DNA of 64,000 nucleotides. Source: Candidatus Micrarchaeia archaeon. GTDB lineage: Archaea > Micrarchaeota > Micrarchaeia > Burarchaeales > Fermentimicrarchaeaceae. The stretch is taken from positions 248,212 through 312,211 of the forward strand of contig JAVZHX010000001.1 of NCBI GenBank assembly GCA_038871515.1, written 5' to 3'. Position numbers and translations under genes: made by a program. Numbering within the stretch: position 1 is the first letter of the stretch; each line of letters opens with the position of its first letter. This document shows positions 1-41,198 of this stretch, in pieces. The notes beneath the pieces were generated by a model, which saw only the letters and a list, made by a program, of their open reading frames with translations, was not told the DNA's origin and made no database searches.

Positions 1-25
1 GCTCGGCATCTTTCCTTTTCTGTGG

Positions 26-595
26 TTGCACAGCGTGGTTCTACGCTCAAATCTGCCAACGAGTCTCTTCGTCTGCGCTAATACCTCAATAGTTCTTCTT
101 ATGTCGTACATAAGTAGGAGTTTGATGAACCAGACTGCGGTTGTTGTATTCGGGTTGCTCGCATTGCTATTTTCCGCCATCAGCGCAATCTATGATAAAA
201 AAATAAAAAGCTCCGTATCATCTCTCATAGCCGCGCAGACAGCATATATGTTTGTCAGCTTCTCATTCCTCCCTCTTTTCTCACTATTCATAGCTGTCAT
301 TTCCGATTTTCTTGTGAAGTTCACCCTCCTTGCTTCTGAGGAGAGGAGAGATGATATCGCACAGATTATCGTAGCGCTTTACTTCGCAGAGATGCCTCCC
401 TTCCCGACGTTTGCTGAGGAATTTGAGATTCTTGAGAGAAGCTTCAACATAGGAATTATTTTGAACATAGCCGGTTTGCTTATGATGGTGGCTCTTCTCA
501 TGCACAGGGTGAAGGGTGGCAAGAGCCTGGGAGCCAGAATTATTGGTGCAATACTGCTGTTGCTAGGATTGATAGTTCTGATGAGGGAGATATGA
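26..595 (+). CDS. Polytopic membrane protein, possibly a small membrane subunit of the adjacent energy-converting hydrogenase/Mrp-like module (first Met may be internal)
   Basis: Long hydrophobic segments; ends 4 nt before the NuoB-like gene in the same operon. Confidence 0.3.
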   Translation: MHSVVLRSNLPTSLFVCANTSIVLLMSYISRSLMNQTAVVVFGLLALLFSAISAIYDKKIKSSVSSLIAAQTAYMFVSFSFLPLFSLFIAVISDFLVKFTLLASEERRDDIAQIIVALYFAEMPPFPTFAEEFEILERSFNIGIILNIAGLLMMVALLMHRVKGGKSLGARIIGAILLLLGLIVLMREI

Positions 596-993
596 TGATT
601 AAAAAATCACCTTGGGTGTATCTGCTCGGTTTGGCCGGCTGCAACGGCTGCGACATAGAAATAGCCGCAGCGGTTGGGCCGAGATTTGACCCAGAAAGAT
701 TGGGGATAAAAATAGTGAGCTCCCCAAGACACGCGGACATACTCCTGGTGAATGGAACAGTTAACAAGAAAATGAAAAAAATTGTGAAAGAGGTGTACAA
801 CCAAATGTCAAACCCGAAGATTGTTGTGGCAGTTGGCTCATGCGCAATCTCAAACGGCCCATTTAGGGAATGCTATAATATGGAATGCAGAGTGGATGAG
901 ATTGTGCCCGTTTCAGTTTACATCCCCGGATGCCCGCCAAGGCCGCATGCGATACTTTATGGAATTAAAAAGGCATTGGAGCTGGTAAAATGA
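592..993 (+). CDS. NuoB-like [NiFe]-hydrogenase small subunit (MbhJ/EchC/HycG family)
   Basis: Motifs GCNGCDIE, GSCAISNGPF, GCPPRP match the proximal Fe-S cluster ligands of the NuoB/hydrogenase small subunit family; overlapping start with upstream ORF. Confidence 0.8.
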   Translation: MMIKKSPWVYLLGLAGCNGCDIEIAAAVGPRFDPERLGIKIVSSPRHADILLVNGTVNKKMKKIVKEVYNQMSNPKIVVAVGSCAISNGPFRECYNMECRVDEIVPVSVYIPGCPPRPHAILYGIKKALELVK

Positions 994-1829
994 TCGCACT
1001 TCTCATCGCATTTGTTTTTGGCATATTCGCATCGTGGTTGTTGAGAAATCTTGCTGCAAGGGCAGAGGGGAGAGTTGGGCCGCCGCTTCTTCAGCCAGTT
1101 TGGGATTTGATAAAACTGTTCAGCAAAGGCTCGGTTGGAGATGTTTCAGAAGCACTTCCCTTGCTCTCACTTCTGCTTGTTGCGTTTGCCGTAATCAATC
1201 TGCCCTCACCTAGTAACTGGGGCGGGAACCTGATTGTTGTGCTCTACTCCCTAACCGCTTCTTCAATATTCACGGCAATAGCCGGCTTTGCCTCATCCTC
1301 CCCGTTCTCAAGAGTTGGAGGCTCAAGGGAGTTACAGCAGACTCTTCTTTCTGAACTTCTCTTCCTCGCGGCAGGCTTCTCAGCAGTTGTTGCCGCGAAC
1401 AGCACTTCTTTTCAAGCGATTGCTCTGCACAACCACCTTCTACTCTTCATTAATTTTTTGATGATGCTTATTGCATGCCAGGCGAAACTGAGAAAAGCTC
1501 CGTTTGATATCCCTGATGCGAACGTTGAGGTTGCCGGCGGCCCTGCAACTGAGTTCTCAGGTTACGCATTGGGAATGCACGAGCTCACATATCTACTTGA
1601 GTTGTACTGCCTGCCAATGCTCGCCTCATTCCTGTTTTTAGGGCTGGATTACACGGCTTCACTTTTGGCAAGCCTACTGGTAATTCTTGTGTTTGGCGGA
1701 ATAGCTGCGCTGAGCGCTCGTTTCAGTGTTAAAAACTCTAACAAGCTGCTCTTTTTCGCTTTTCTCCTCTCAATGCTGATAACAACAATTCTTTACATAG
1801 GAGGTAGGTTTAATGGAACTTTTATCTGA
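990..1829 (+). CDS. NuoH-like integral membrane subunit (MbhM/EchB/HycD family)
   Basis: N-terminal GRVGPPLLQPVWDLIKLFSK resembles the conserved NuoH/ND1 motif; polytopic. Confidence 0.75.
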   Translation: MIALLIAFVFGIFASWLLRNLAARAEGRVGPPLLQPVWDLIKLFSKGSVGDVSEALPLLSLLLVAFAVINLPSPSNWGGNLIVVLYSLTASSIFTAIAGFASSSPFSRVGGSRELQQTLLSELLFLAAGFSAVVAANSTSFQAIALHNHLLLFINFLMMLIACQAKLRKAPFDIPDANVEVAGGPATEFSGYALGMHELTYLLELYCLPMLASFLFLGLDYTASLLASLLVILVFGGIAALSARFSVKNSNKLLFFAFLLSMLITTILYIGGRFNGTFI

Positions 1830-2139
1830 GATAATTAAGAAAATGGTGAGGAAACCTTCTACCGAGAAATACCCCTACGCCCCATCACCCGCTCCGCAAA
1901 AAACAAGAGCACGCTTAACAAGAGACAGAAAGATATGCATAAACTGCGGGGCTTGCACTCTTGTATGCCCCTCAAAAGCATGCTACTTCGTGCAAGAGAA
2001 AGATAAAAGAAGAGTTGAGTTCAACTTAGCTTACTGCACATTCTGCGCCCAGTGCGTTGAGGTTTGCCCTGTGAAATGCTTAAAAATGGTTAATGAGTAT
2101 GAACTTGCAACAAAGGATAAAGGAGAGCTGATAATCTGA
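1813..2139 (+). CDS. NuoI-like 2x[4Fe-4S] ferredoxin subunit (MbhN/EchF/HycF family)
   Basis: Two CxxCxxCxxxCP motifs (CINCGACTLVCP, CTFCAQCVEVCP); overlaps upstream gene. Confidence 0.75.
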   Translation: MELLSEIIKKMVRKPSTEKYPYAPSPAPQKTRARLTRDRKICINCGACTLVCPSKACYFVQEKDKRRVEFNLAYCTFCAQCVEVCPVKCLKMVNEYELATKDKGELII

Positions 2140-2162
2140 AATTCATAAAAAACATTGGGGTT

Positions 2163-2678
2163 GTGCTTGTAAGTTTGTACTTCCTTTTTTACGGAGCGTA
2201 CATCACAGTATATGCAAAAACATTTCTCACTGCAGTTGGGCTCACCCAATGCTTCGGTGAGCAGTGCTTGAAAATTGGCTTCCTCAGTTTGCTTGGCTGG
2301 ATACTTGTTGGGATTGGTTTGGTTTACATAATAACCGCTGTTCTCCTCCGCTTCCACAAACTTGGTTGCTACACCGCGATGGTTATCTCATTATTCAGCA
2401 TTCTCCTCATAATTGCATACTCCCTCAAACCAGATTTAACAGCTCTCTGGCTCATTTTCATTTTTCCAGTAAAACTTGCTACGACAACAGCAGCAAACCT
2501 TCCGGTGATTGGAGGTTTATTGCAAATTTTTGTGAGTTTAACAGAAACTCTAACCATCCTCGTCAATCTGATAATTTTCATTTACTTGCTCATTCTATTT
2601 GGAAAAGGAATTTGGAATGAAAAAATTGAAATCAGCAAGGAAATTGAGGAGTTAGAAGAAGAGAATAGCCGAGCCTGA
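2163..2678 (+). CDS. Hypothetical polytopic membrane protein
   Basis: Hydrophobic helices; follows the hydrogenase-like genes. Confidence 0.35.
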   Translation: MLVSLYFLFYGAYITVYAKTFLTAVGLTQCFGEQCLKIGFLSLLGWILVGIGLVYIITAVLLRFHKLGCYTAMVISLFSILLIIAYSLKPDLTALWLIFIFPVKLATTTAANLPVIGGLLQIFVSLTETLTILVNLIIFIYLLILFGKGIWNEKIEISKEIEELEEENSRA

Positions 2679-3047
2679 GTGGGTGGTGGATTAGAATTAG
2701 AAGGCCCGGCCATTCGAACATGAAAAGCCGTGAGTTTTGGAGATGCTACAGCTCCTTTTAGCAAGTGCAGAGAAAGGCTTTTAGTAGTGGACGGGCTCAC
2801 GGATCGCTTGCGCTTTCCGCTTACACCCCCACCCTATCAACAGGATCTGCTATCCTGGCCTTGGACTGCCTCGTTTTGAGAATGGCTTCGACCTTAGATG
2901 CTTTCAGGTCTTATCCACTGGCGCGTGGCTGCCCGGCAGTGCTTTTCACAACCGGTAAACTAGAGGCGCCGATTCCCTGTTCCTCTCGTACTCAGGGAAT
3001 CCTGCTCTCAGGCAGTCAGCACTCCTAGGAGATACTACCGAACTGTC

Positions 3048-3098
3048 TTTGTCGCCCCAGATGGCAAGAAAATTAATAGTGAAATTTGCCATCGGGGG
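3048..3098 (-). mobile_element. 51-nt ORF-less mini-intron in 23S (between consensus GTCGCGA and GACAGTTCGG)
   Basis: Insertion inside a universally conserved 23S sequence; contains internal hairpin GATGGCAA...TTGCCATC. Confidence 0.5.
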
Positions 3099-3109
3099 TC
3101 GCGACGTTC

Positions 3110-3144
3110 TTTAGGCTAGAAGGGGTTATGGATAACCACTCCTA
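3110..3144 (-). mobile_element. 35-nt ORF-less mini-intron in 23S (between GCTGGGTTCA and GAACGTCG)
   Basis: Insertion interrupting conserved GAGCTGGGTTTAGAACGTCG; leaves an 11-nt exon (3099-3109) between two introns. Confidence 0.5.
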
Positions 3145-3465
3145 TGAACCCAGCTCGTGTAGGTCTTTAATGGATGAACAACCCAACCCTTGGCGGCTCC
3201 TGCACCGCCAGGATGACCTAGGCCGACAGCGATGTACCAAACCGCGAGGTCGATGTGTACTCTCGCCCGCGACGAGCCTGTTACCCCCGGGGTAGCTTGT
3301 CTGACAGCTTGGACCCTCAACAAAAGGGATACCAAGGTTCGTTAAGCCCCTCTTTCGAGCCTGAATCCCACGCTTTTAAGGATTCAGTCAGCCCTGCATT
3401 TGTCTTTGACCCTTACCGGCGGATTTTCAGCCCCATAGCTAAGGCTATAGTGGATTCTGACCCGC

Positions 3466-4374
3466 CTAAGCAGAGCATTCCCCGGTTTTTAAACCCCGAC
3501 CTATAATTTTTTCCAAATCAGCAAGATCCGCGGTTACTGTTATTGGTAAATCAGAAAATTTATCTAATAAATTTTTATAAGTGTAGATGACAACATTGTA
3601 GCCAATACCAGTAAACACATGGACTTTTTCTTTAGTTCTTTTTATGTGCGGTTCCCAGTCAAATCCTACCACTTCTATTATCAAGTTTTTATTGGGTATG
3701 AGAAAGTCCGGGTAGTACCTAGTGACTTTTTTCTCGTATATAAAATTGATTCTTTTTTCTGTCAAAAATTTTGCTAACTCTATTTCCTTTAGACTTCTAT
3801 ACTGCTTTTCATCGAAAGATATTTTCTTTCTGAAAGATTTTCTGAATATTTTTTCAAGTCGTTTTTGTAACTGGGATTCAGACAACTTGGCAATTGAATT
3901 TCTTCCGCCAAGCCTGCCAATTTCTCTGTAAGGGTTTTCTCCATATTTTTTTGTTAATGCCGCTTTAGCTAGGATGCGTCTTTTTATCTCTATATTTTTA
4001 TTCCTCCTGGTTAATTCATCCAATTTAATTTTGCCTTTTTTACCTAACACACTATGTAAGTTTCTCCCATATTTTTTTCTTAACTTATTAATCCCCTTCT
4101 TGCTAGCAACCCTAAGAATATCCGAAATGCTTGTTTTTTTATAGCCGAAGTCATCAATATTGATTGAAAATTCATCGGCCCATTTTTTTACTAGCATTGC
4201 TGGCATTGTTCTCTCCCCTCTCCAGTACATTTTAAGACAACCATAGGGTAGTGCTAGTTTTTCTGTTAACTCCCTAAGCGTCGTAGAATTAGTTCTTAAA
4301 CTAAGCTCTAGAAAAAATCTCCGTCGCTCACTTTTTGATCTAAATTTTATTCTCTCATTCAATTCAATGTCCAT
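3466..4374 (-). CDS. Intron-encoded protein: N-terminal HTH region plus C-terminal putative PD-(D/E)xK (DUF559/Vsr-like) nuclease; putative homing endonuclease
   Basis: No LAGLIDADG motif; C-terminal YYPDFLIPNKNLIIEVVGFDWEPH resembles restriction-endonuclease-like core; paralogous to ORF 9862-10617 in the 16S intron. Confidence 0.45.
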   Translation of the reverse strand: MDIELNERIKFRSKSERRRFFLELSLRTNSTTLRELTEKLALPYGCLKMYWRGERTMPAMLVKKWADEFSINIDDFGYKKTSISDILRVASKKGINKLRKKYGRNLHSVLGKKGKIKLDELTRRNKNIEIKRRILAKAALTKKYGENPYREIGRLGGRNSIAKLSESQLQKRLEKIFRKSFRKKISFDEKQYRSLKEIELAKFLTEKRINFIYEKKVTRYYPDFLIPNKNLIIEVVGFDWEPHIKRTKEKVHVFTGIGYNVVIYTYKNLLDKFSDLPITVTADLADLEKIIGRGLKTGECSA

Positions 4375-4385
4375 GTTTTGTTATA
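3480..4385 (-). mobile_element. 23S rRNA intron (domain V) carrying a non-LAGLIDADG ORF; boundaries approximate
   Basis: 23S consensus resumes at about 4386 (GGCGGTACGCCCTCGATAAGG) and below about 3480; AT-rich insert with ORF. Confidence 0.55.
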
Positions 4386-5872
4386 GGCTTCCGGGTTTAA
4401 AATCCTTTGGGCGCCCTTGTTTCCTTATCGAGGGCGTACCGCCCCAGCCAAACTATCCATCTGCCGGTGTCCCCTTTCAGGTTAGGAACACAGCAGCTGT
4501 AGAGCGGTGTTTCACTTTCGCATTCACACCCCCCGCAAGAGGTGTTTCGACGCTCCCGCTTACGCTGTGCAACAACCACCGTATCCCAACGACAGACTAT
4601 AGTAAAGCTCCACGGGGTCTTCGTTTCCCCCTAGAAGTCCTCGGCATCTTCACCGAGTAGTGAGTTCACCAGGTCCCAGATAGGGACAGCGGGACGCTCG
4701 TTATGCCCTTCATGCAAGCCACCAATTAAGCGGCGAGGTATTACGCTACCTTAAGAGGGTCAGAGTTACCCCCGCTCTTTGCCGGCGCTTTGCTCCATTG
4801 GACTGGAGTTTGACGTACCGGTAGTGAGCAGGCATCGCCCCCTATACTAAGCCTTTCGGCTTTGCAGGGAGCTGTGTTTTTGGTAAACAGTCGACGTCCC
4901 CTTGTCACTGCGACCTGCGGTTGCAGCTTGCGCCACAACTGCAGGCATGGCTTCTCCCGAAGTTACGCCACTGGATTGCCGAGTTCCCTTACCTGGGTTC
5001 TCCTGACACGCCTTGGCTTCCTCTGCCAGCAGCACCTGTACGAGTTCTAGGTACGAGCTCGTGGAATCGCTGCCAGCTTCCTTTTCACGGGCTCAAGGAA
5101 TCAGCGGAACCACCTTGCGATGGCCTTCCCAGAGTTAGACTGCTTCTCCTCATAACGAGTCTCTGCAGTCTTGCAGAGGTTAGATGAGCTCTCGCTCACT
5201 CCACCTATCCCCAAGCGTCAGAAGCTGGCCTTGTGTCGCCACGTCTACCCACGAGGCACTGGAATCTTAACCAGTTTCCCTTTTGCTCCCGAGTAATTAG
5301 CTGGGAGCTTAGGATCGGCTTACTCTTAACTGACGAACATTGTTAAGAAAACCGTGTGCTATCCGGCGTCCAGGATTCTCACCTGGATTTGCTGTTACTA
5401 ACACCAAGATATTTGTTTCTGACAGGTCCATTGGAACTCACGCCCCAACTTCTGCCCTGCCAGAACACCCCCCTACCAGATGATGCTTGCGGCATCCTCC
5501 GGGGTATCGGCACCTGGCTTAGCCCCGGTAATCTTCAGAGCCTGCACTCTCGACTGGTCCGCTGTTACGCGTTGTTTAAAGGATGGCTGCTTCTGAGCCT
5601 ACCTTCCAGCTGTTTTAGAGTGGAGACTCCTTTGAGATTAGCACTTAGCCAGGATTTAGGGGCCTTAACCTCGGTCTCGGTCGTTCCCGTCCCGGCATGC
5701 TAGCTTACCCAGCACGCCCGACTCCCATCTTCTACGGTGATTGTGAATTCGGAGTTTGAAAAGACAGTAGAGCCTTTCGGCTCCGTTCTGCCTGATCAGT
5801 GCTCTACCTCACAATCCACCTCCAATGGGGCTATCCTAAGGGATACTTCGGGGGGAACCCGCTTTAGCGAGT

Positions 5873-6745
5873 TTAAAGGGCAGCATACAAAGATTCCATA
5901 TCTTTCTTTTTTCTTATAATTGGAAAATCTTTAAATTTGTAAAAATTGTTTATTCCATAAATGTAAAGAGCAAATTTGTTTTTGTATGAATAGATATGGG
6001 AAGTTCGGATACCAACCTCCTTTAAGATTTTTTTGATAAATTGTAGAGATTCTAGATTACTTTGGTAGAAAGCTAATTTTATCTTTCTTATTTTTTTATA
6101 GGTCTGTTTGCTTGTGACGTAGCCTTCTGCATCGAAAAATCCAGCCAGATAATACTTCCAACATTTTGGATTTTCTTTTATTATTCTTGGTGTTTTCCAG
6201 TATTTCTGATCCATCGGCATTTCAAAGATATTTTCAAAGAAGAGGACGATTGGTTTTGAATTTACACGAAGACGGTATGAATTTTTGTCCATGTCTATTT
6301 TTGCTTCAACCAAGAAAATCTCATTGAAAATATCTCGCATTAACTGGATCCACTGCAATGCACCATTACCTGACTGGGTTAAGGCAATTGTATATCGATC
6401 CCCTTCTAATTTTGAAACGGAACCATCTCTCAACACTCCGACAAGATAAGCAAGTTTTGAATCCAGAAATTGGGGGAGTCTGACCCCCTTTTTACTTCTG
6501 GATTTAAATTCAGAAATGTTTTGGAACACTTCATCATAATTTTTCTTGCGTTCGTCTAAGAGGTCAAGTAGATAGTCGAGAGGAGTAACTCCGCTACTCA
6601 AGCGATAATATTTAGTCGATTTTTTGAGTAGAGGAAACTCATCTCCGAACTGTCTTAGTATCTGAGGGTCTACTTTTACGTAGAGATTTTGGTTTTTCAG
6701 ACAACTTAGGTAATTTGGTATTGGTATCTTCCATTTTTCCCACAT
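5873..6745 (-). CDS. LAGLIDADG homing endonuclease (double-motif)
   Basis: Motifs LAYLVGVLRDGSV and YYLAGFFDAEGYV. Confidence 0.8.
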   Translation of the reverse strand: MWEKWKIPIPNYLSCLKNQNLYVKVDPQILRQFGDEFPLLKKSTKYYRLSSGVTPLDYLLDLLDERKKNYDEVFQNISEFKSRSKKGVRLPQFLDSKLAYLVGVLRDGSVSKLEGDRYTIALTQSGNGALQWIQLMRDIFNEIFLVEAKIDMDKNSYRLRVNSKPIVLFFENIFEMPMDQKYWKTPRIIKENPKCWKYYLAGFFDAEGYVTSKQTYKKIRKIKLAFYQSNLESLQFIKKILKEVGIRTSHIYSYKNKFALYIYGINNFYKFKDFPIIRKKKDMESLYAAL

Positions 6746-6800
6746 GTCACTAGATTTATTTGCTGCCCTTATAAACTTATCGCCAAGTTCGATAGGACTA
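5875..6800 (-). mobile_element. 23S rRNA intron (domain II region) with LAGLIDADG ORF; boundaries approximate
   Basis: Flanked by 23S sequences GGTAGAGCACTGATCAGG...GGTTAAGGCCCCTAAAT below and GGTGACCTGCGTGTAGGGG above. Confidence 0.55.
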
Positions 6801-7551
6801 TCACCCCTACACGCAGGTCACCCGAGCGGATATACCAGCACCGGTTGCGGGCCTCCACCAATCTGAGGATTGGCTTCGCCCTGCCCGCGTGTAGATCACA
6901 TTGGCTTCGGGTCTGATGAAAGTGATTTATGGCACTTTCGTACCACCTGCCTCGCCCTTTCGGGTTGCGCAGTCTCGCTTTCGCTCCGCCTTTCGGCTCA
7001 CCACTTCCATCAACTCCTTGGCTCTTGCTTCAAGAAGAACGATGCAACCCTGCTCAATCTCCCGTCGCTCTACATATTTCTACATATCGCTTCCAGGAGA
7101 CCGCATTCCTTTCGGGCCGCACCTTCTGTAGCCACTCAGTTTCAGGCTCTTTTAACTCCCCTTTCGGGGTGCTTTTCAGCGTTCGCTCGCGCTACTTGTG
7201 CGCTATCGGTCTCAGGTTATATTTAGAGTTGGAAGTTGATGCTCCCATGTTCGCGCCCAATACTCAATGGACGCTACTCCGCGCATCCCCTCCCCTCCTG
7301 TTTTTCGCTTACGAGGCTTTCACTCTCTTTGGCAGCGCTTTCCAGCGCACTTCAGCTAGACAGAAGGAGAATGGAATGCATCACATCTCCCACAAGTTGC
7401 CCTGAGGGATTCGAATTGCCTCTGTGTGGCTTTCAGTCGCCCTTACTCACCACATCCCATTTGGTTTCTTTTCCTGCGGGTACTAAGATGTTTCAATTCC
7501 CCGCGTGCTCCTTCACCTCTTTTGGAGGTGAATGATTCGGCAATCCCAGGT

Positions 7552-18191: not shown

Positions 18192-19790
18192 GTGGGTTGG
18201 ATGAGTTTTTATAATGAGGAGGGGAGTGTTGAGAAGGCAGGCAGAGAGGTTGCAGAGCTTTTGCTTGCTGGAAAGATAAAAAATAAAGGTGAGCTTTGGG
18301 AGGCGAAGGTTAAAGCAAGCGAGAAGCATGGTGTTGCTGGCGTGATAAAAAACTCAGAGATAATTAAATGGATACCTGCTGAGAGGAGGAAGGAGTTTGC
18401 TGAGCTGGTTAGAATAAGGGCGGTGAGAACAATCTCTGGGGTGAATGTTATAGCAGTTATGACAAGAGGTGAGTGCCCCGGAAAATGCATTTACTGTCCA
18501 AGGGGGGAGAATGCACCGAAAAGCTATACGGGGAGGGAGCCTGCTGCAATGAGGGCAATTCAAAACGAATATGACCCGTTCAAGCAGGTTGTTTCAAGGG
18601 TGAAACAGCTTGAGGAGATTGGGCACAGGGTGAGCAAATGCGAGCTGATTATAATGGGTGGAACTTTCAATTCAATGCCGAAGGAGTATCAGGAGTGGTT
18701 TGTTAAGAGATGTTTTGATGCGATGAATGGGTTTGATTCAGAAAGTTTGGAGGAAGCAAAAGAAAGGAATGAGAACGCTGAGAGGAGGGTTGTTGGTTTA
18801 ACAATTGAGACAAGGCCGGATTGGGCAGGCGAGAGAGAGGTTGATGAACTGCTTCGCTACGGCACAACGAGAGTTGAGCTGGGAGTGCAGACGCTGGATG
18901 AGGAGGTTTATAAAAAGGTTAACAGAGGGCATGGTTTAAAGGAGGTTGTTGAGGCAACAAGGGTATGTAAAGACTCGCTTCTGAAAGTTCTTTACCACAT
19001 GATGCCTGGCTTGTTTTCTGATAAAGAGAGTGATTTGAGAAATTTCAGAGCTATTTTTGAGGATGAGAGGTTCAAGCCAGATATGCTGAAAATATATCCT
19101 TGTTTGGTGATGGAAGGAACTGAGTTATATGAGATGTGGAGGAGGGGGGAGTTCAAACCATATTCCCTTGAGGAGGCTGCGGATGTGATTGCAGAGGTTA
19201 TGAGAAGCATACCTCGCTACGTAAGGGTGATGAGGGTGCAGAGGGATATTCCTTCTTATTTGATTGCGGATGGAGTGAAAAAAAGCAATTTGAGGCAGAT
19301 TGTTGAGAGGAAGCTTGCTGAGCAAGGGATGCGGTGCAACTGCATAAGGTGCAGGGAGATAGGTTATAAAATTATGAAAGAGGGTATAGAGCCGGAGTTG
19401 GAAAGTGTTAAGTTGAACAGAATTGATTATGATGCTTCTGGAGGTAAGGAGATTTTTCTGAGTTTTGATGAGATGAAGCATGATGCGCTTGTTGGTTTTT
19501 TGAGGTTGAGGATTTTGTCTGAAAAGGCGCATAGAAAGGAGCTGAGGGGAGCTGCGGGAGTGAGGGAGCTTCATGTTTATGGGGAGATGCTTCCTGTCGG
19601 AGAGAAAAGAGTTAGTGAGTTTCAGCACATGGGGTTTGGGGAGAGGTTGCTTGAGGAAGCTGAGAGAGTTGCGAGGGAGGAGTTTGACTGCAGGAAGCTT
19701 GCGGTGATAAGCGGTGTTGGCGCTAGGGAGTATTACTTTAAGTTGGGTTATAAAAGAGATGGGGTGTATGTTTCAAAGGAGCTGGGGTAA
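18192..19790 (+). CDS. elp3: Elp3-like radical SAM plus GNAT tRNA modification enzyme
   Basis: CPGKCIYCP radical-SAM cluster motif, C-terminal acetyltransferase domain. Confidence 0.9.
   Translation: MGWMSFYNEEGSVEKAGREVAELLLAGKIKNKGELWEAKVKASEKHGVAGVIKNSEIIKWIPAERRKEFAELVRIRAVRTISGVNVIAVMTRGECPGKCIYCPRGENAPKSYTGREPAAMRAIQNEYDPFKQVVSRVKQLEEIGHRVSKCELIIMGGTFNSMPKEYQEWFVKRCFDAMNGFDSESLEEAKERNENAERRVVGLTIETRPDWAGEREVDELLRYGTTRVELGVQTLDEEVYKKVNRGHGLKEVVEATRVCKDSLLKVLYHMMPGLFSDKESDLRNFRAIFEDERFKPDMLKIYPCLVMEGTELYEMWRRGEFKPYSLEEAADVIAEVMRSIPRYVRVMRVQRDIPSYLIADGVKKSNLRQIVERKLAEQGMRCNCIRCREIGYKIMKEGIEPELESVKLNRIDYDASGGKEIFLSFDEMKHDALVGFLRLRILSEKAHRKELRGAAGVRELHVYGEMLPVGEKRVSEFQHMGFGERLLEEAERVAREEFDCRKLAVISGVGAREYYFKLGYKRDGVYVSKELG
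19488..19507 (+). repeat. 20-bp direct repeat copy 1 (CTTGTTGGTTTTTTGAGGTT) inside the elp3 3-prime region; putative att core
   Basis: Identical 20-mer recurs at 21143-21162, followed by about 85 percent identity for 50 further nt. Confidence 0.6.
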
Positions 19791-19836
19791 AAGGACAGTT
19801 CTTCAATCTAGAGGATAGAAATGGATATAAACATAT

Positions 19837-19867
19837 GCTAACAAAAATTTGTTAGCAATTGTTAGCA
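19837..19867. promoter_or_regulatory. Perfect palindrome GCTAACAAAAATTTGTTAGC plus an extra TTGTTAGC half-site directly upstream of the ATPase gene; candidate operator
   Basis: Seen directly; the same GCTAACAAA half-site recurs at the gene 3-prime end. Confidence 0.5.
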
Positions 19868-19876
19868 GGTTTTGAT

Positions 19877-21040
19877 ATGGTAAATCCCTTTACACCTGGT
19901 AACGGTATAGAGCCTCGATACTTGGCTGGCAGAGAGAGGCATATCGGTGAATTCATAAAATCTCTCCAAGCATCTGAAGATGGTTTACCAAGAAATATGG
20001 TTCTCTACGGTTTGCGTGGGACTGGAAAAACAGTGCTTTTAAGGCATTATGGGATAATTGCAGAAACAAAAAACTGGGTTTTTGTGGATAGAGAGTTTAA
20101 TGAAAGATACTGTGACGAAGCAGAGTTTGCCCAGATGTTTGGAAAAGATTTGGTGACATTAGCTTCAGAAGTTTCAATAAAAAAGAGGATAACGGAAACT
20201 GGGAAAAAGATTCTGGATTTCCTAAAACCAGAGGAGCTGAGTGCTTATGGCATTAGATATAGGCCATATTACGAGGATCGCGAAGGGATTCTGGAGGATT
20301 ATATAAGGGAGATGCTCCAATCGAACTGGTCTATTTTTGAAAAAGCGGACAAGAAAGGCGTGGTGTTTTTTTATGATGAATTCCACTCAATAAAAGACAG
20401 AAAAGAAGAGAAGCAGTACGTTCTATCCAGCCTTCTAGGTGCGTTATCCAGAGTTCAAAGAGAAGGGTATAGGTATTACCTGTGCCTTTCTGGTCTCCCA
20501 GCTATAAAAACGAATTTAAAAGAGGCCAAAACATATTCGGAGAGAATGTTTATTTTTCAGGATGTGGGAAACCTAAACCGCGAGGAATCAAGAAAAGCCT
20601 TGCTCGAACCGCTTAGTAAAACTCATTATAGTTTTGAGAATGAACTGGTAGATAGAATAATTGATGAAACAAAAGGCTATCCGTACTTTATCCAGTTTTA
20701 TGGCTACTTCCTGGTTGATGCTGTTGGTAGGAAGAGTATAAAACTTGGGGATTTGGAAACAAACAAAAATAAACTACTTGAGATGCTTGATAAAAGCTTT
20801 TTTGAGGATAGGTTTAACCTGGCTTCAGAAACTGAAAAAAAGGTTCTTGTATCTATGGCAAAATGTGGGGGTGATAAGGTAAGCGCAGCCCAACTTAAGA
20901 AAAAGGTGAGGATGAGCTATAAGTCTCTTCAGCAATACCTGTTTAGATTAATAGATAAGGGTTTAATTTATAGGGCTCAGAGGGGCTTCTATTCGTTTTC
21001 CATACCTTTATTTAGGGATTATCTTCTAAGACAAAGCTAA
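19877..21040 (+). CDS. Archaeal ATPase family protein (Arch_ATPase-type P-loop NTPase with C-terminal DUF234-like winged helix)
   Basis: N-terminal FTPGNGIEPRYLAGRERHIGEF, Walker A GLRGTGKT, Walker B VVFFYDEFH, C-terminal wHTH-like; probable ATG start at 19877. Confidence 0.65.
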   Translation: MVNPFTPGNGIEPRYLAGRERHIGEFIKSLQASEDGLPRNMVLYGLRGTGKTVLLRHYGIIAETKNWVFVDREFNERYCDEAEFAQMFGKDLVTLASEVSIKKRITETGKKILDFLKPEELSAYGIRYRPYYEDREGILEDYIREMLQSNWSIFEKADKKGVVFFYDEFHSIKDRKEEKQYVLSSLLGALSRVQREGYRYYLCLSGLPAIKTNLKEAKTYSERMFIFQDVGNLNREESRKALLEPLSKTHYSFENELVDRIIDETKGYPYFIQFYGYFLVDAVGRKSIKLGDLETNKNKLLEMLDKSFFEDRFNLASETEKKVLVSMAKCGGDKVSAAQLKKKVRMSYKSLQQYLFRLIDKGLIYRAQRGFYSFSIPLFRDYLLRQS

Positions 21041-21076
21041 CAAATACTAACATGCTCTTGTTATTCTTTGTTAGCT
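21035..21076. repeat. Inverted repeat AGCTAACAAA ... TTTGTTAGCT (22-nt spacer) overlapping the ATPase stop codon
   Basis: Seen directly; shares the half-site with the upstream palindrome. Confidence 0.5.
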
Positions 21077-21142
21077 TCAAGTTTTTTATCACCTGAACAC
21101 GCTGCTCAATACTGGGGTGGTTTATTAAAGGAGAGTGTCAAG

Positions 21143-21235
21143 CTTGTTGGTTTTTTGAGGTTAAGAATTCTTTCTGAAGAGGCGCATAGGGAGGAGCTGA
21201 AGGAAGCTGGGGTAATTAATTTATTTAAAGTGTAA
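21143..21235 (+). pseudogene. Displaced fragment of the elp3 3-prime end (begins with direct-repeat copy 2)
   Basis: Nucleotide-level homology to 19488-19560 (20/20 then about 85 percent); translates to LVGFLRLRILSEEAHREELKEAG, matching Elp3 residues LVGFLRLRILSEKAHRKELRGAAG. Confidence 0.6.
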
Positions 21236-21242
21236 AAGAATT

Positions 21243-21731
21243 ATGGAGTACGGAAGTTATAAGCTGCCTTGGAATAAGAGAAAGGTTGTTGTTCCTTTGC
21301 TGTTTACCGCTCTGCTCATTCTCTTTACTCTGGGTGCTCCTAACGAATTGCGAACGAAGGAAGTTGCAGTTCTTGGGTTGCTCTTTCTTCTACTTCTTGT
21401 CTCTCTCTTCTATTGTTCTCAGAGGGTAAAGGATTATGTGTATGAGGAAAGCTATGAGTGGATTAAAAGAAATATAAACTGCCCTGTTTGTGGAGGGAAG
21501 ATAACGAGATGTGAGAACGTATGGGGAGGCAGAGGTGGAGATATCTATGAGTTGCAGTGCGGGAATTGTAGGAAGGAGTTTATACTTACTCCTAAATTTG
21601 GTCGCTCTGGGCTTGTGCTTCAGGATAAAGCACCTGGAGCTTCTGCGAAAGTCTTGACACTGATATTTTTGATATCGATCGTGGTGATTGCAGTTATTGT
21701 TGTTTACTTTTTATTAAAAGGTAAGTGGTGA
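21243..21731 (+). CDS. Membrane protein with central Cys4 zinc ribbon (CPVCGGK...QCGNCRKEF), hypothetical
   Basis: N- and C-terminal TM helices flank a CxxC...CxxC module; paralog of 27538-28113. Confidence 0.45.
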   Translation: MEYGSYKLPWNKRKVVVPLLFTALLILFTLGAPNELRTKEVAVLGLLFLLLLVSLFYCSQRVKDYVYEESYEWIKRNINCPVCGGKITRCENVWGGRGGDIYELQCGNCRKEFILTPKFGRSGLVLQDKAPGASAKVLTLIFLISIVVIAVIVVYFLLKGKW

Positions 21732-21909
21732 GCGCTTTATGGTTGGGATGTAACCATGGTTACAAATGAAAGAGAGTTGATGTGGTGAATGGTGAATTTT
21801 CAATAAAGGCGTTTGCACAGATAAGCGAGGATAAAGTTTCGATAGTTGGGGGGTTCTACGCAAATTTAGATATGGGGTATAATAATAAGGAAGATGAAAA
21901 GGTGATAAT

Positions 21910-23226
21910 ATGTATTCCAAAAAAATTCAGGATAGGTTGAAATCACTTGGTGTTGAAGTTGGAGACACAGTTAAAGTGAAAAGAGGGGAGGAGGTTTATG
22001 AGGGAATATTGATGCCTAAAACCGAGCTTGGCGACCCAAACACAATTGTTATAAAACTCCAAAACGGCTACTCAATAGGTTTAAGCTTTGAGGGATTGGA
22101 AATTGAAAAGCTCGGGGGACATAGGAAAATAGGCTTCAAAAGCAGCGAGGAAAAAATGAAGCATGAGGCTGGAAAGCCAATTCTTTCAATAATAAGCACA
22201 GGCGGAACAGTTGCCTCTAGAGTTGATTACACAACAGGAGGTGTTTACGCATCTTATACTGCAGCTGATTTGGTTGCAACTGTCCCTGAGCTGAAGCAGT
22301 TCAACATTGACTCAAAGCTGCTTTTTAGCATAATGAGCGAGGATATGACTCCGCAGCACTGGAGAGAGATGGCAAAGGAAGTTTATAAACAATTAAAAGG
22401 TGAGGCAAGCGGTGTTGTTGTAACACACGGAACAGACACGATGCACTTCTCAACAGCTGCTCTTAGCTTCATGCTGAAAAATTTGAACAAGCCAGTTGTT
22501 TTCACTGGAGCGCAAAGATCAAGCGACAGGGGTTCAAGCGATTCTTTCATGAATCTGCTTTGTGCTGCCCACTTTGCAGCAAGAAGCGATGTTGCGGAAG
22601 TTTCCCTTGTTATGCACGGCTCCTCCAATGATGACTTCTGCTATGCGCACAGAGGAACAAAGGTGAGAAAGCTGCACACTTCAAAGAGAGATGCGTTCAA
22701 AAGTGTGAATGATGAGCCAATTGCAAAAGTTTTTCCAAACGGAAGAATTGAGGTGATTAACAAAAACTACAGAAGAAGAAGCGACTCAGAGGTTTCTCTT
22801 GATGACAAGCTTGAGGAGAAAGTTGCCTTAATTAAAGTTTACCCTGGAATTAACCCAGAGATATTTGATTTTTATCTTGAAAGAAAGTTTAAGGGAATTG
22901 TGATTGAGGGAACTGGCTTGGGGCATGTGCCAACAACAATTGAAAAGTATTCACTAATACCAAAAATAAAAGAAGCGACAAAAAATGGAATTCCTGTCTG
23001 CATAACCTCCCAGTGCATATTTGGAAGGGTGCATGAGTTCGTTTACGCAAATCTTAGGAAGGAGTATGAGGCAGGAGCAGTTTTCTGCGGTGACATGCTT
23101 CCAGAGGTTGCATATGTTAAGTTGATGTACGTTTTAGCTCATACAAAGGAATTGGAGGAAGTTAAGAAAATGATGTTAACCAACCTTGCTGGAGAGCTTA
23201 ATGAAAAAACTCCGGTGTTTGAGTGA
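21910..23226 (+). CDS. gatD: Glu-tRNA(Gln) amidotransferase subunit D
   Basis: Asparaginase-like domain with SIISTGGTVAS; followed by overlapping gatE. Confidence 0.9.
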   Translation: MYSKKIQDRLKSLGVEVGDTVKVKRGEEVYEGILMPKTELGDPNTIVIKLQNGYSIGLSFEGLEIEKLGGHRKIGFKSSEEKMKHEAGKPILSIISTGGTVASRVDYTTGGVYASYTAADLVATVPELKQFNIDSKLLFSIMSEDMTPQHWREMAKEVYKQLKGEASGVVVTHGTDTMHFSTAALSFMLKNLNKPVVFTGAQRSSDRGSSDSFMNLLCAAHFAARSDVAEVSLVMHGSSNDDFCYAHRGTKVRKLHTSKRDAFKSVNDEPIAKVFPNGRIEVINKNYRRRSDSEVSLDDKLEEKVALIKVYPGINPEIFDFYLERKFKGIVIEGTGLGHVPTTIEKYSLIPKIKEATKNGIPVCITSQCIFGRVHEFVYANLRKEYEAGAVFCGDMLPEVAYVKLMYVLAHTKELEEVKKMMLTNLAGELNEKTPVFE

Positions 23227-40295: not shown

Positions 40296-41198
40296 AGCTT
40301 AGCTGAGCTTGCGAAGAATAAAGATGTAGTGAAACCATTTGGAGAAGTTGACGTTCTGCTTTACTATGGAATTGTGGGAAGCAAGCTTGTTGGTTTTTTG
40401 AAGGGAAAGGAGCTTGCAGCGAAAAACTGGTTCCCTCCAAAAGGTGGTTTGCCAACAGTTCTTAAAAGAGGTTCAAAGGAGGAGCCGCTTTACATAGATG
40501 AATTTGTTGATGCGATAACACCTGGGTTTCTCTCATTGAGAGGGAAGCACCTTGAGGAAGTTAGAGATAAACTCGCTCCTTCCCAGCAGAAAGTGTGGCG
40601 CTACTTTGTCCCAAGGAAGCTCTCTGATTTGTTTTATGCGACAAACAATGAGGGGGAAGGTAAATCTATCGACAGAATTTTCTTTGATTTGGATAGGGGG
40701 GAGGGAGTTACTTCTGAATATGCACAGCAGGTAGCAAGGGAGTTCCTTGCTGTTATGGAGGATGATTTGAGGGAGTTGAACTGCGAAAAAAGATTTGTGA
40801 TGTGGACTGGGAGCTCCTTTCATGTTTATCTATTTCTCAAGAAGAGAATGCCTCCCTCCTTTTACGAGGAAAACTTTCAGGTCAGCACAAAAGGTGGACT
40901 TCAAACAGCAGCGCAGAAGTGGGTTGATGAGTTGAAGAAAAAAGGGTTGAAGGTGAGCGGGAGCCATGAAAAAATTGCGGGAGTTGTTGCAATAGACCCA
41001 TCTCAAACTCCCTCAGGGAAATTGGCAAGAGCTCCCTTCTCGCTGCACATGCAGGATTATAAAACAATCAATGGGGTTGCAATTCCGCTTGATTTGAACA
41101 TGCTTGATGATAAGAAATTGGTAGAGGAGCTGAAGCAGTATACGCCAAACAGAGTCGTTGAGGAGCTGAACTCTCTTTCAAAAAGACTGCCATTGTGA
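40293..41198 (+). CDS. Archaeo-eukaryotic primase (AEP) superfamily protein resembling the LigD polymerase/primase domain (NHEJ PolDom-like)
   Basis: Motif I FFDLDRGE, motif II WTGSSFHVYLFL, motif III region VAIDPSQTPSGKLARAPFSLH (compare LigD aPYSlR). Confidence 0.6.
   Translation: MSLAELAKNKDVVKPFGEVDVLLYYGIVGSKLVGFLKGKELAAKNWFPPKGGLPTVLKRGSKEEPLYIDEFVDAITPGFLSLRGKHLEEVRDKLAPSQQKVWRYFVPRKLSDLFYATNNEGEGKSIDRIFFDLDRGEGVTSEYAQQVAREFLAVMEDDLRELNCEKRFVMWTGSSFHVYLFLKKRMPPSFYEENFQVSTKGGLQTAAQKWVDELKKKGLKVSGSHEKIAGVVAIDPSQTPSGKLARAPFSLHMQDYKTINGVAIPLDLNMLDDKKLVEELKQYTPNRVVEELNSLSKRLPL

Follow-up and report, generated by a model that had tools for sequence, protein, structure and literature searches.

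How can an archaeon gain a gene at the 3' end of one of its conserved genes when the incoming DNA encodes no integrase? This question is raised by a locus in a 64,000-nucleotide stretch of DNA, here called the window, from contig JAVZHX010000001.1 of a Candidatus Micrarchaeia archaeon (assembly GCA_038871515.1), in which about 1,655 bp of foreign DNA is inserted into the chromosome at the 3' end of the tRNA-modification gene elp3. The only gene carried whole by the insert encodes an AAA+ ATPase. How DPANN archaea such as Micrarchaeota gain genes, and what mobile DNA they have, is little understood, and the locus is a record of one acquisition at base resolution, with a donor-supplied gene end, a displaced native end, an empty site in relatives and later decay. 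It indicates that the 3' end of a conserved gene can take up accessory, defence-like genes without an element-encoded integrase. In the reading regarded here as probable, a single crossover within a 21-bp block of identity joined the chromosome to a small, non-autonomous circle, which carried a related elp3 end and an ATPase cassette, and the displaced native end decayed afterwards. The features of the locus are collected in Table 1.

Table 1. Features of the elp3 locus, in positions of the window.
Feature	Position	Strand	Basis
elp3, intact, chimeric, 529 aa (amino acids), from the ATG at 18201	18201..19790	+	Pfam and NCBIfam
Left copy of the 21-nt (nucleotide) junction repeat, attL-like, probable crossover block	19487..19507	+	exact repeat
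Replacement elp3 3' end, 94 codons and stop	19508..19790	+	comparison with empty-site relatives
Left spacer of the insert, with a TATA-like box (ATATAAA, 19825-19831) for the ATPase gene	19791..19836	+
Upstream composite site, three half-sites, between TATA-like box and ATG	19837..19866	+	GCTAACAAA-AA-TTTGTTAGC-AA-TTGTTAGC
Cargo gene, 387-aa P-loop AAA+ ATPase with C-terminal winged helix, Orc1/Cdc6-like fold (predicted)	19877..21040	+	Pfam, AlphaFold (AF2) model, Foldseek
Downstream composite site over the stop codon, nested inverted repeat AAGCTAACAAATACTAACA / TGTTATTCTTTGTTAGCTT	21034..21077	+	repeat search
Right spacer of the insert	21078..21141	+	no similarity to elp3 or any fetched sequence
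Right copy of the 21-nt junction repeat, attR-like	21142..21162	+	exact repeat
Relic of the native elp3 3' end	21142..21215	+	repeat families and alignment to relatives
Native spacer between elp3 and the membrane protein gene, 27 nt	21216..21242	+	alignment to L091-L093
Native downstream gene, 162-aa membrane protein with CxxC zinc ribbon	21243..21731	+	ortholog alignment (161-aa product of L091, product of L093)

Two ends for one elp3 gene

The product of elp3 matches the Pfam domains ELP3_N, Radical_SAM, Radical_SAM_C and GNAT, as well as the NCBIfam model TIGR01211 (ELP3) with 743 bits. An earlier note, made from the letters of this DNA alone, had pointed out a 20-bp direct repeat at 19488 and 21143, and this observation holds, as the 20-mer has two exact copies in the window; the full exact repeat is in fact 21 nt long (GCTTGTTGGTTTTTTGAGGTT). 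None of 100 shuffled controls contained three or more matches to the 20-mer at up to three mismatches. A third near-copy at 40386-40405 (CTTGTTGGTTTTTTGAAGGG), with 3 mismatches, is treated as chance. Beyond the exact block the similarity goes on, ungapped, to a total of 71 nt at 86% identity (54 of 63 positions in a second alignment), and the two copies differ at 0 of 21 positions within the 21-mer and at 9 of 42 beyond it (P about 0.006 for uniformly spread differences, a value calculated post hoc, after the data had been seen).

The second copy had been described in the earlier note as about 85% identical to the elp3 end and then diverging until a stop. The similarity stands, but the sequence does not simply diverge, since its last 16 nt (21200-21215) agree once more with the last 16 nt of elp3, TAA included, at 14 of 16 positions, and a deletion of 230 nt separates the matching parts. 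What lies downstream is thus an elp3 3' end that has lost an internal stretch. Positions 21142-21204 correspond to 19487-19549 and positions 21205-21215 to 19780-19790, and the native TAA stop stands at 21213-21215; the deletion, which lies between GGAGCTG microhomologies, alters the frame, and the in-frame stop that follows at 21233-21235 is incidental. To the left of the downstream 21-mer no residual elp3 homology was found: the stretch 21076-21141 aligns locally with elp3 no better than shuffled sequences do, and blastn-short returned chance matches only. A difference-free block at the edge of the homology, with no homology to its left, fits a single crossover at the edge of donor-borne homology.

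Which of the two ends is native can be read from the relatives. Elp3 loci were scanned in one genome per species (80 loci), and closer relatives were drawn from a search of a large protein collection. The closest Elp3 proteins, P0122 and P0123, are 89% and 87% identical to that of the window, and their loci (L091, L092 and L093) share the order hyp277, elp3, 27 nt, a 161-aa transmembrane protein gene, gatD and gatE. No ATPase gene is present there, and these loci thus represent the empty site that the earlier note had called for. Directly after their elp3 stops, their spacers match the 27-nt spacer of the window at 89-93% over its full length, and window positions 21213-21262 correspond to the elp3 stop, the spacer and the start of the next gene in these relatives. 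Over 21196-21262 the window reads GCTGAAGGAAGCTGGGGTAA TTAATTTATTTAAAGTGTAAAAGAATT ATGGAGTACGGAAGTTATAA, aligned to ...AAGGAGTTAAGGTAA TTAATTTATTTGAGTGTAAAAGAATT ATGGAGTATGGAAGTTATAAA in L093 and to ...AAAGGAGCTGGGGTGA TTAATTTATTTAAGTTGTAAAATAATT GTGGAATACGGAAGTTAC in L091.

The flanks of the working elp3 end give the opposite picture. Neither the sequence after the current elp3 stop nor the 66 nt before the downstream repeat has a match in the relatives or in the fetched loci, and the left spacer also has none elsewhere in the window. Since the relic abuts the native spacer while the flank of the current stop matches nothing, 19508-21141 is inserted DNA, with which the working elp3 end (19508-19790) arrived. 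By the same alignments, 21142-21215 is the native elp3 3' end, still joined to its native downstream context, and the present elp3 gene is native up to the 21-nt block and supplied by the insert from 19508 onwards. The proposal that a replacement gene end has displaced the original is thus borne out by the empty site and by the native spacer after the relic. Two outcomes that would have spoken against it, namely the same arrangement without repeats in relatives and a different gene as the source of 21143-21235, were looked for and not found.

The incoming end is close kin to the sequence that it replaced. Compared with L091, it is 87.2% identical in nucleotides and 91.5% in amino acids, and the native 5' part 85.3% and 87.9%; against P0122, the values are 87.5% for the N-terminal part of Elp3 and 91.4% for the replaced C-terminal part. 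Relatives rank in identical order for both parts, which indicates a donor from the same narrow clade. For the same reason, an attempt to separate the donor lineage from the host lineage failed, and the sliding identity of elp3 against its relatives has no discontinuity at 19487. A long target-site duplication was considered and rejected, because the reading frame of elp3 runs on into the insert without a shift. Such continuity implies an insertion guided by homology.

Could the two ends have arisen in place, by a tandem duplication of the elp3 3' end, a separate insertion of the ATPase cassette between the copies and decay of the distal one? The cassette is a discrete unit at other loci, and the distal copy, with two K-to-E changes and its frame-shifting deletion, has the look of a decaying sequence. 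However, two rare events would then have had to strike the same place, the current elp3 stop is followed by sequence that bears no relation to the native spacer, and 21% divergence beyond the 21-mer against 0% inside it is hard to obtain by uniform decay. At the sites that differ, moreover, each copy retains some states of the relatives: the relic retains ATT CTT (ATT CCT or ATT CTT in relatives), the current copy retains AGAAAG, and the functional copy carries derived synonymous changes where the relic has the relatives' state. These mixed ancestral states point to copies that stem from different related sequences and not from a recent duplication, which makes an origin in place very improbable.

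A chimeric join at a short repeat might also be suspected, since the sequence comes from a metagenome-assembled genome and contains a 21-nt repeat. Yet a separate assembly, made by Logan from run SRR27170999, agrees with the window in every letter of 17 kb that span the entire region; the relic adjoins the native spacer expected there, and the intact reading frame of elp3 passes unbroken through the junction. The identity of an independent assembly makes an artefact very unlikely, and its probability is considered practically nil.

The ATPase and the repeats that bracket it

The cargo protein had been labelled as Arch_ATPase/DUF234-like. A structural neighbour in Pyrococcus (2qen) agrees with the first part of this label, but in Pfam the protein passes the threshold only for AAA_16 (5.4e-11, 43.7 bits against a threshold of 32.6), scores 19.6 bits against ATPase_2 (Arch_ATPase, PF01637; cut-off 33.2) and does not match DUF234. 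For the NCBIfam model TIGR02928 the score is 23.6 bits (cut-off 181.3), and the match is confined to the P-loop region. An AlphaFold model, for which 25 homologs were used, has a pLDDT of 84.7, and its top Foldseek matches are 2qby_A (E 6.5e-10), 2qen, 2v1u and 1w5s/t. According to this model, the fold is nearest to archaeal Orc1/Cdc6 proteins and to the Pyrococcus Arch_ATPase 2qen, with an AAA+ base, a lid and a C-terminal winged helix. A sequence search of the PDB found no relative of the protein. PADLOC and NCBIfam gave no convincing match, and it is not a recognised defence protein; in PHROGs it matches only phrog_6841 (4.9e-22), a family of unknown function. The GC content of its gene is 0.387 (0.374 at third codon positions), against 0.436 for the window.

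The closest homologs, at 70-72% identity, are those of loci L094-L096. Distant ones occur on 109 bacterial plasmids and on some viral contigs, and those of bacterial plasmids (about 30% identity) are solitary accessory genes without flanking repeats.

In the window, by contrast, the gene stands between repeats. The motif GCTAACAAA occurs 4 times in the 64 kb (expected 0.97), each time flanking the ATPase gene. What had been described as a perfect 20-bp palindrome upstream consists in fact of 9+2+9 nt (GCTAACAAA-AA-TTTGTTAGC), followed by a third half-site at 19859-19866. The downstream inverted repeat has 19-nt arms that are 89% complementary, and a run of six T residues lies at 21082-21087. 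Rfam has no matches across 19400-21900.

Homologous loci reveal that these repeats belong to the gene. Nucleotide homology between the window and the loci of ATPase homologs starts at about 19823-19826 and ends at 21045-21073, that is, from the TATA-like box to the downstream inverted repeat, and delimits a conserved repeat-gene-repeat cassette of about 1.24-1.25 kb. In the homologs, two direct half-sites, spaced at a period of 10 nt, are followed in a composite site of about 40 nt by an A/T run of 5-7 nt and two inverted half-sites; the upstream site lies between the TATA-like box and the ATG, and the downstream one overlaps or follows the stop codon. The half-sites vary by lineage: GCTAACA in the window, GATAACA in L094 and L096, TTAACA in L088, ATGATAG in L087, GTAAACA in L102-L108 and GTGTAGTA in L116. 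In L087, the two site copies form a 45-nt direct repeat at 91% identity that brackets the ATPase gene. The similarity of upstream and downstream flanks exceeds that of shuffled sequences (z > 4) in 14 of 18 non-redundant loci with at least 55% identity, and matching flank sites were found in none of 13 distant bacterial or viral homologs.

This architecture favours the alternative that the earlier note had also raised, in which the palindromes are cognate sites of the winged helix-turn-helix ATPase. The GCTAACAAA repeats are most likely binding sites of the ATPase itself, a prediction drawn from their conserved placement, and the position of the promoter-proximal set, where an archaeal repressor would act, suggests possible autoregulation. 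The winged-helix recognition region differs between half-site groups, a difference that is confounded with phylogeny. The palindromes do not mark the borders of the inserted DNA but belong to the conserved cassette. Because the borders of the insertion do not lie at the repeats, the cassette is a passenger on the larger piece of 1,655 bp. A reading of the unit as an integron cassette was dropped, since the same motif also stands upstream, in the promoter, and neither an attI nor an IntI context was seen.

In several contigs the cassette behaves as a unit. The cassettes of L102:4952-6199, L103:221-1470, L107:4945-6193 and L108:4951-6200 are shared at 82-95% identity, and in all four the ends are reverse complements of about 40 nt. 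L102 and L108 share the unit only (92% identity, from -49 to +35), as does L103; L102 and L107 also share the downstream flank, and L107 and L108 the upstream one. Homology breaks exactly at the outer repeat edges, GTAAACAAATGTAAACA... and ...TGTTTACATTTGTTTAC. Neither in L102-L108 nor in the window do the cassette edges show a target-site duplication, and domain searches revealed no transposase domain in the cassette.

The genes around some of these cassettes recall a defence island. Flanking genes in soil metagenome contigs encode a TIR-domain protein (L107:3041-4429) and an OLD-family ATPase-TOPRIM nuclease (L102:6304-8295). In two DPANN contigs, L086 (named Diapherotrites; 1-7200) and L087 (160-7250), genes resembling those of a type IV secretion system (T4SS), for a TrbC-type pilin, PrgI and a TraC/VirB4-like DUF87 ATPase, stand directly before the cassette, which suggests carriage on conjugative or integrated elements. 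The cassette is thus an accessory unit of variable, defence-island-like regions. In a separate case, L083:5771-7200, a 68%-identical ATPase cassette lies about 90 nt downstream of a tRNA-Ser(CGA) gene, and no repeat of a tRNA fragment was found within 1.3 kb downstream. Taken together, these loci expose a widespread and uncharacterised archaeal cassette, in which an ATPase of predicted Orc1/Cdc6-like fold is bracketed by lineage-specific repeats, with a predicted protein-DNA pairing.

Possible routes of entry at the elp3 end

The earlier note ascribed the locus to site-specific integration by a mobile mini-element. In its fullest form this would be an integrative element with the 21-mer as attachment (att) core and the elp3 end within attP, whose tyrosine or serine recombinase has been lost or acts in trans. 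The flanking direct repeat, the replacement gene end and the empty site are all in place, and perfect identity at the exact edge of homology, with none to its left, is also what a classical attP/attB pair would leave. Integration into the 3'-distal part of protein genes is on record for archaeal elements, among them 14 of the 68 integrated elements of Thaumarchaeota (PMC6563490), and close ATPase homologs adjoin T4SS-like genes, with distant ones on bacterial plasmids and viral contigs.

However, the recombinase is missing. As the earlier note had already remarked, no integrase is present: Pfam detects no integrase or recombinase domain in the insert, the AAA+ ATPase being its only gene, and a motif screen, which is a crude test, found no tyrosine-recombinase signature among the open reading frames of the window. 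The insert, at 1.65 kb, is also smaller than the smallest described archaeal cryptic integrated element, a thaumarchaeal one of 2.6 kb, and all of those elements encode an integrase (PMC6563490). Core and unit do not recur either. The ATPase is absent from the elp3 region in all 80 loci of the one-genome-per-species scan, and neither it nor the 21-nt repeat is found at any of 83 other Elp3 loci; none of about 30 loci with ATPase homologs (L094-L096 and about 25 further) adjoins elp3; and in viral contigs the 21-mer and the palindrome are absent, with distant ATPase homologs only.

A self-comparison of 84 Elp3 loci (the window and the 83 others) revealed duplicated elp3 ends at two of them only, the window locus and L080, which belongs to a distant archaeon with an Elp3 of 54% identity. 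L080 is a second, independent example at elp3. Three elp3 3' ends are present in L080:7380-12000. Here, elp3 is followed by genes for a PIN protein, a 406-aa protein of unknown function and an MNT and HEPN pair, then by a second elp3 end of about 80 nt that reaches the stop; the next unit holds a lone AAA_14/DUF4143 ATPase gene and ends in a third elp3 end, which has an internal deletion. Neither cargo unit was found to encode an integrase domain, and the 406-aa protein, which has no Pfam or PHROG match, is no more than a candidate recombinase. The elp3-end copies start at -84 and -59 in L080, against -304 in the window, and such different junction positions argue against one conserved att site. 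The pattern of junctions favours homology-guided capture of cargo at the elp3 gene end. The second copy in L080 starts with 16 identical nt, and a recombinase acting in trans may account for it. On balance, site-specific integration is not supported, with no integrase, no recurrence and the L080 junctions elsewhere, and is held to be a possible but rather doubtful origin. The unit appears to be non-autonomous, and not a self-mobile integrative element.

Linear DNA of a related Micrarchaeon could have produced the locus in another way, by homology-facilitated illegitimate recombination, with a homologous crossover in or upstream of elp3 and an illegitimate join at the equivalent of 19487, in which case the 21-nt identity would be coincidental. 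The donor end comes from the same clade, no recombinase is necessary, runs of 20-31 identical nt are common between such sequences, and the variable junctions of L080 fit joins that are not site-specific. The junction between elp3 and gatD is itself variable in the clade. The order hyp277-elp3-gatD-gatE is conserved across Micrarchaeota, with elp3 and gatD directly adjacent in L007 (a gap of 22 nt), L009-L011 and L016. The gap contains a paralog of class-II aminoacyl-tRNA synthetases resembling AsnA, on the minus strand, and an Lrp/AsnC regulator in L003:7570-9181, L005:7588-9174, L006:4893-6520 and L008:2727-5084, and a TnpB-like gene of 382 aa in L004:7449-8751. These differing contents among close relatives, a Fermentimicrarchaeum-like clade, mark the junction as a variable spot. 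Nevertheless, the illegitimate join would have to hit the start of the 21-nt run (P about 0.006-0.04), the second copy of L080 likewise opens with identical nucleotides, and no discontinuity of identity is seen further upstream in elp3, at poor resolution. An event of this kind is regarded as unlikely.

The preferred course, a single crossover with a circle, would have run as follows. A circle of 1,655 bp would have comprised a homolog of the last 304 nt of elp3, a spacer of 46 nt and the ATPase cassette with a further 66 nt; its donor was probably a related Micrarchaeon with the cassette just after elp3, or the circle derived from one. Circle and chromosome would have recombined in a Campbell-type single crossover within the 21-bp block, carried out by recombination functions of the host or by a recombinase supplied in trans. 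In the resulting elp3, the native 5' part would be joined by way of the 21-mer to the incoming 3' end, the gene would keep its full length, and the native end would have been shifted 1,655 bp downstream, beside the native spacer and the gene of the 162-aa membrane protein. Useless in that place, the displaced end would then have lost 230 nt by deletion between the GGAGCTG microhomologies. The junction of the circle is predicted as ...GAGTGTCAA-GCTTGTTGGTTTTTTGAGGTT-GAGGATTTTG (in a shorter form, ...AAAGGAGAGTGTCAA-GCTTGTTGGTTTTTTGAGGTT-GAGGATTTTGTCTG...).

Several points weigh against this proposal. The searches brought up neither a circle nor a donor genome nor an empty site in the same species, the circle being deduced only from the topology of the locus; exact-protein look-ups of Elp3, the ATPase and the membrane protein returned only the contig of the same organism, so that there is no same-species polymorphism to compare. 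Runs of 20-31 identical nt occur between elp3 ends of about 85% identity; what is informative about the 21-nt run is only its place at the edge of homology, and the significance of that place is post hoc. A crossover at the very edge of homology is moreover what a dedicated site-specific recombinase would be expected to produce, and an event with linear DNA, one join homologous and the other illegitimate, would yield the same product if the 21-nt identity were coincidental. As for the cassette, the covariation of recognition helix and half-sites is confounded by phylogeny, which makes the binding of the repeats by the ATPase a candidate interaction.

A bolder possibility is that the ATPase and its composite repeats of about 40 bp form an undescribed single-gene archaeal module, mobile or self-replicating, whose protein acts on the terminal sites, and that its circles insert without an integrase once they have captured a gene end. 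If this speculative idea, to which a low probability is given, were true, DPANN archaea would have a cassette system that targets gene ends without an integrase, and the window and L080 would each bear one of its footprints. The architecture of the cassette and the parallel in L080 are the findings most worth following up.

Some features of the neighbourhood stand apart from these questions. The 162-aa protein has two predicted membrane segments and a CxxC...CxxC zinc ribbon, with a weak, sub-threshold match to the N-terminal part of DpnI or methyl-directed restriction endonucleases, and its gene directly follows elp3 only in the closest relatives, L091-L093. It is followed in the window by gatD and gatE, and an open reading frame of 52 aa at 21782-21940, which the Logan assembly also annotates as a gene, overlaps the start of gatD.

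Comparison with known systems

Integration at the end of a protein gene is well known from the lambdoid phage 21 and the e14 element, which enter the 3'-distal part of icd in E. coli and supply a substitute end. The window insert resembles such gene-end integrative elements in the direct repeats at its junctions, the restored frame, the displaced native end and the empty site in relatives. It differs from them in the absence of an integrase, in its size of 1.65 kb and in its single gene. Furthermore, its replacement end of 283 nt is only about 80% identical beyond the 21-nt core, and its att site is non-recurrent.

In Campbell-type insertion, circular DNA enters by a single crossover through a cloned or captured homologous fragment. 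Homology-facilitated illegitimate recombination has reportedly been described in naturally transformable bacteria by de Vries and Wackernagel in 2002. Like the products of these processes, the window holds a foreign gene beside a conserved anchor, a segment of which is duplicated, and no element recombinase is needed; unlike in ordinary homologous recombination, the crossover lies at the very edge of homology. To our knowledge, neither Campbell-type nor homology-facilitated insertion has been documented for Micrarchaeota.

The ATPase itself invites comparison with the Orc1/Cdc6 initiators (2qby, 2v1u) and with PABY2304 (2qen), with which the model shares the AAA+ base, the lid and the C-terminal winged helix. 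The ATPase gene adjoins inverted repeated sites that flank an A/T run, an arrangement that may recall the origin recognition boxes of Orc1/Cdc6 initiators. Unlike in Orc1/Cdc6 and Arch_ATPase proteins, however, the family scores stay far from their cut-offs for TIGR02928 (23.6 against 181 bits) and below that for ATPase_2. In contrast to Orc1/Cdc6 origins, the A/T run is only 5-7 nt long and not a duplex-unwinding element, and sites stand at both ends of the gene. The distribution of the cargo ATPase, unlike that of Orc1/Cdc6, is patchy and accessory, with defence-island-like neighbours, T4SS-like clusters and plasmids.

Small cassettes with inverted sites at their ends are known as insertion sequence (IS)-like elements with terminal inverted repeats and as dif modules of Acinetobacter plasmids. 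The unit of about 1.25 kb seen in relatives is similar to these, being bounded by composite inverted repeats of about 40 nt at whose outer edges the homology breaks. It is unlike IS-like elements in that the cassette has no transposase and no target-site duplication was seen, and the borders of the window insertion lie away from the repeats.

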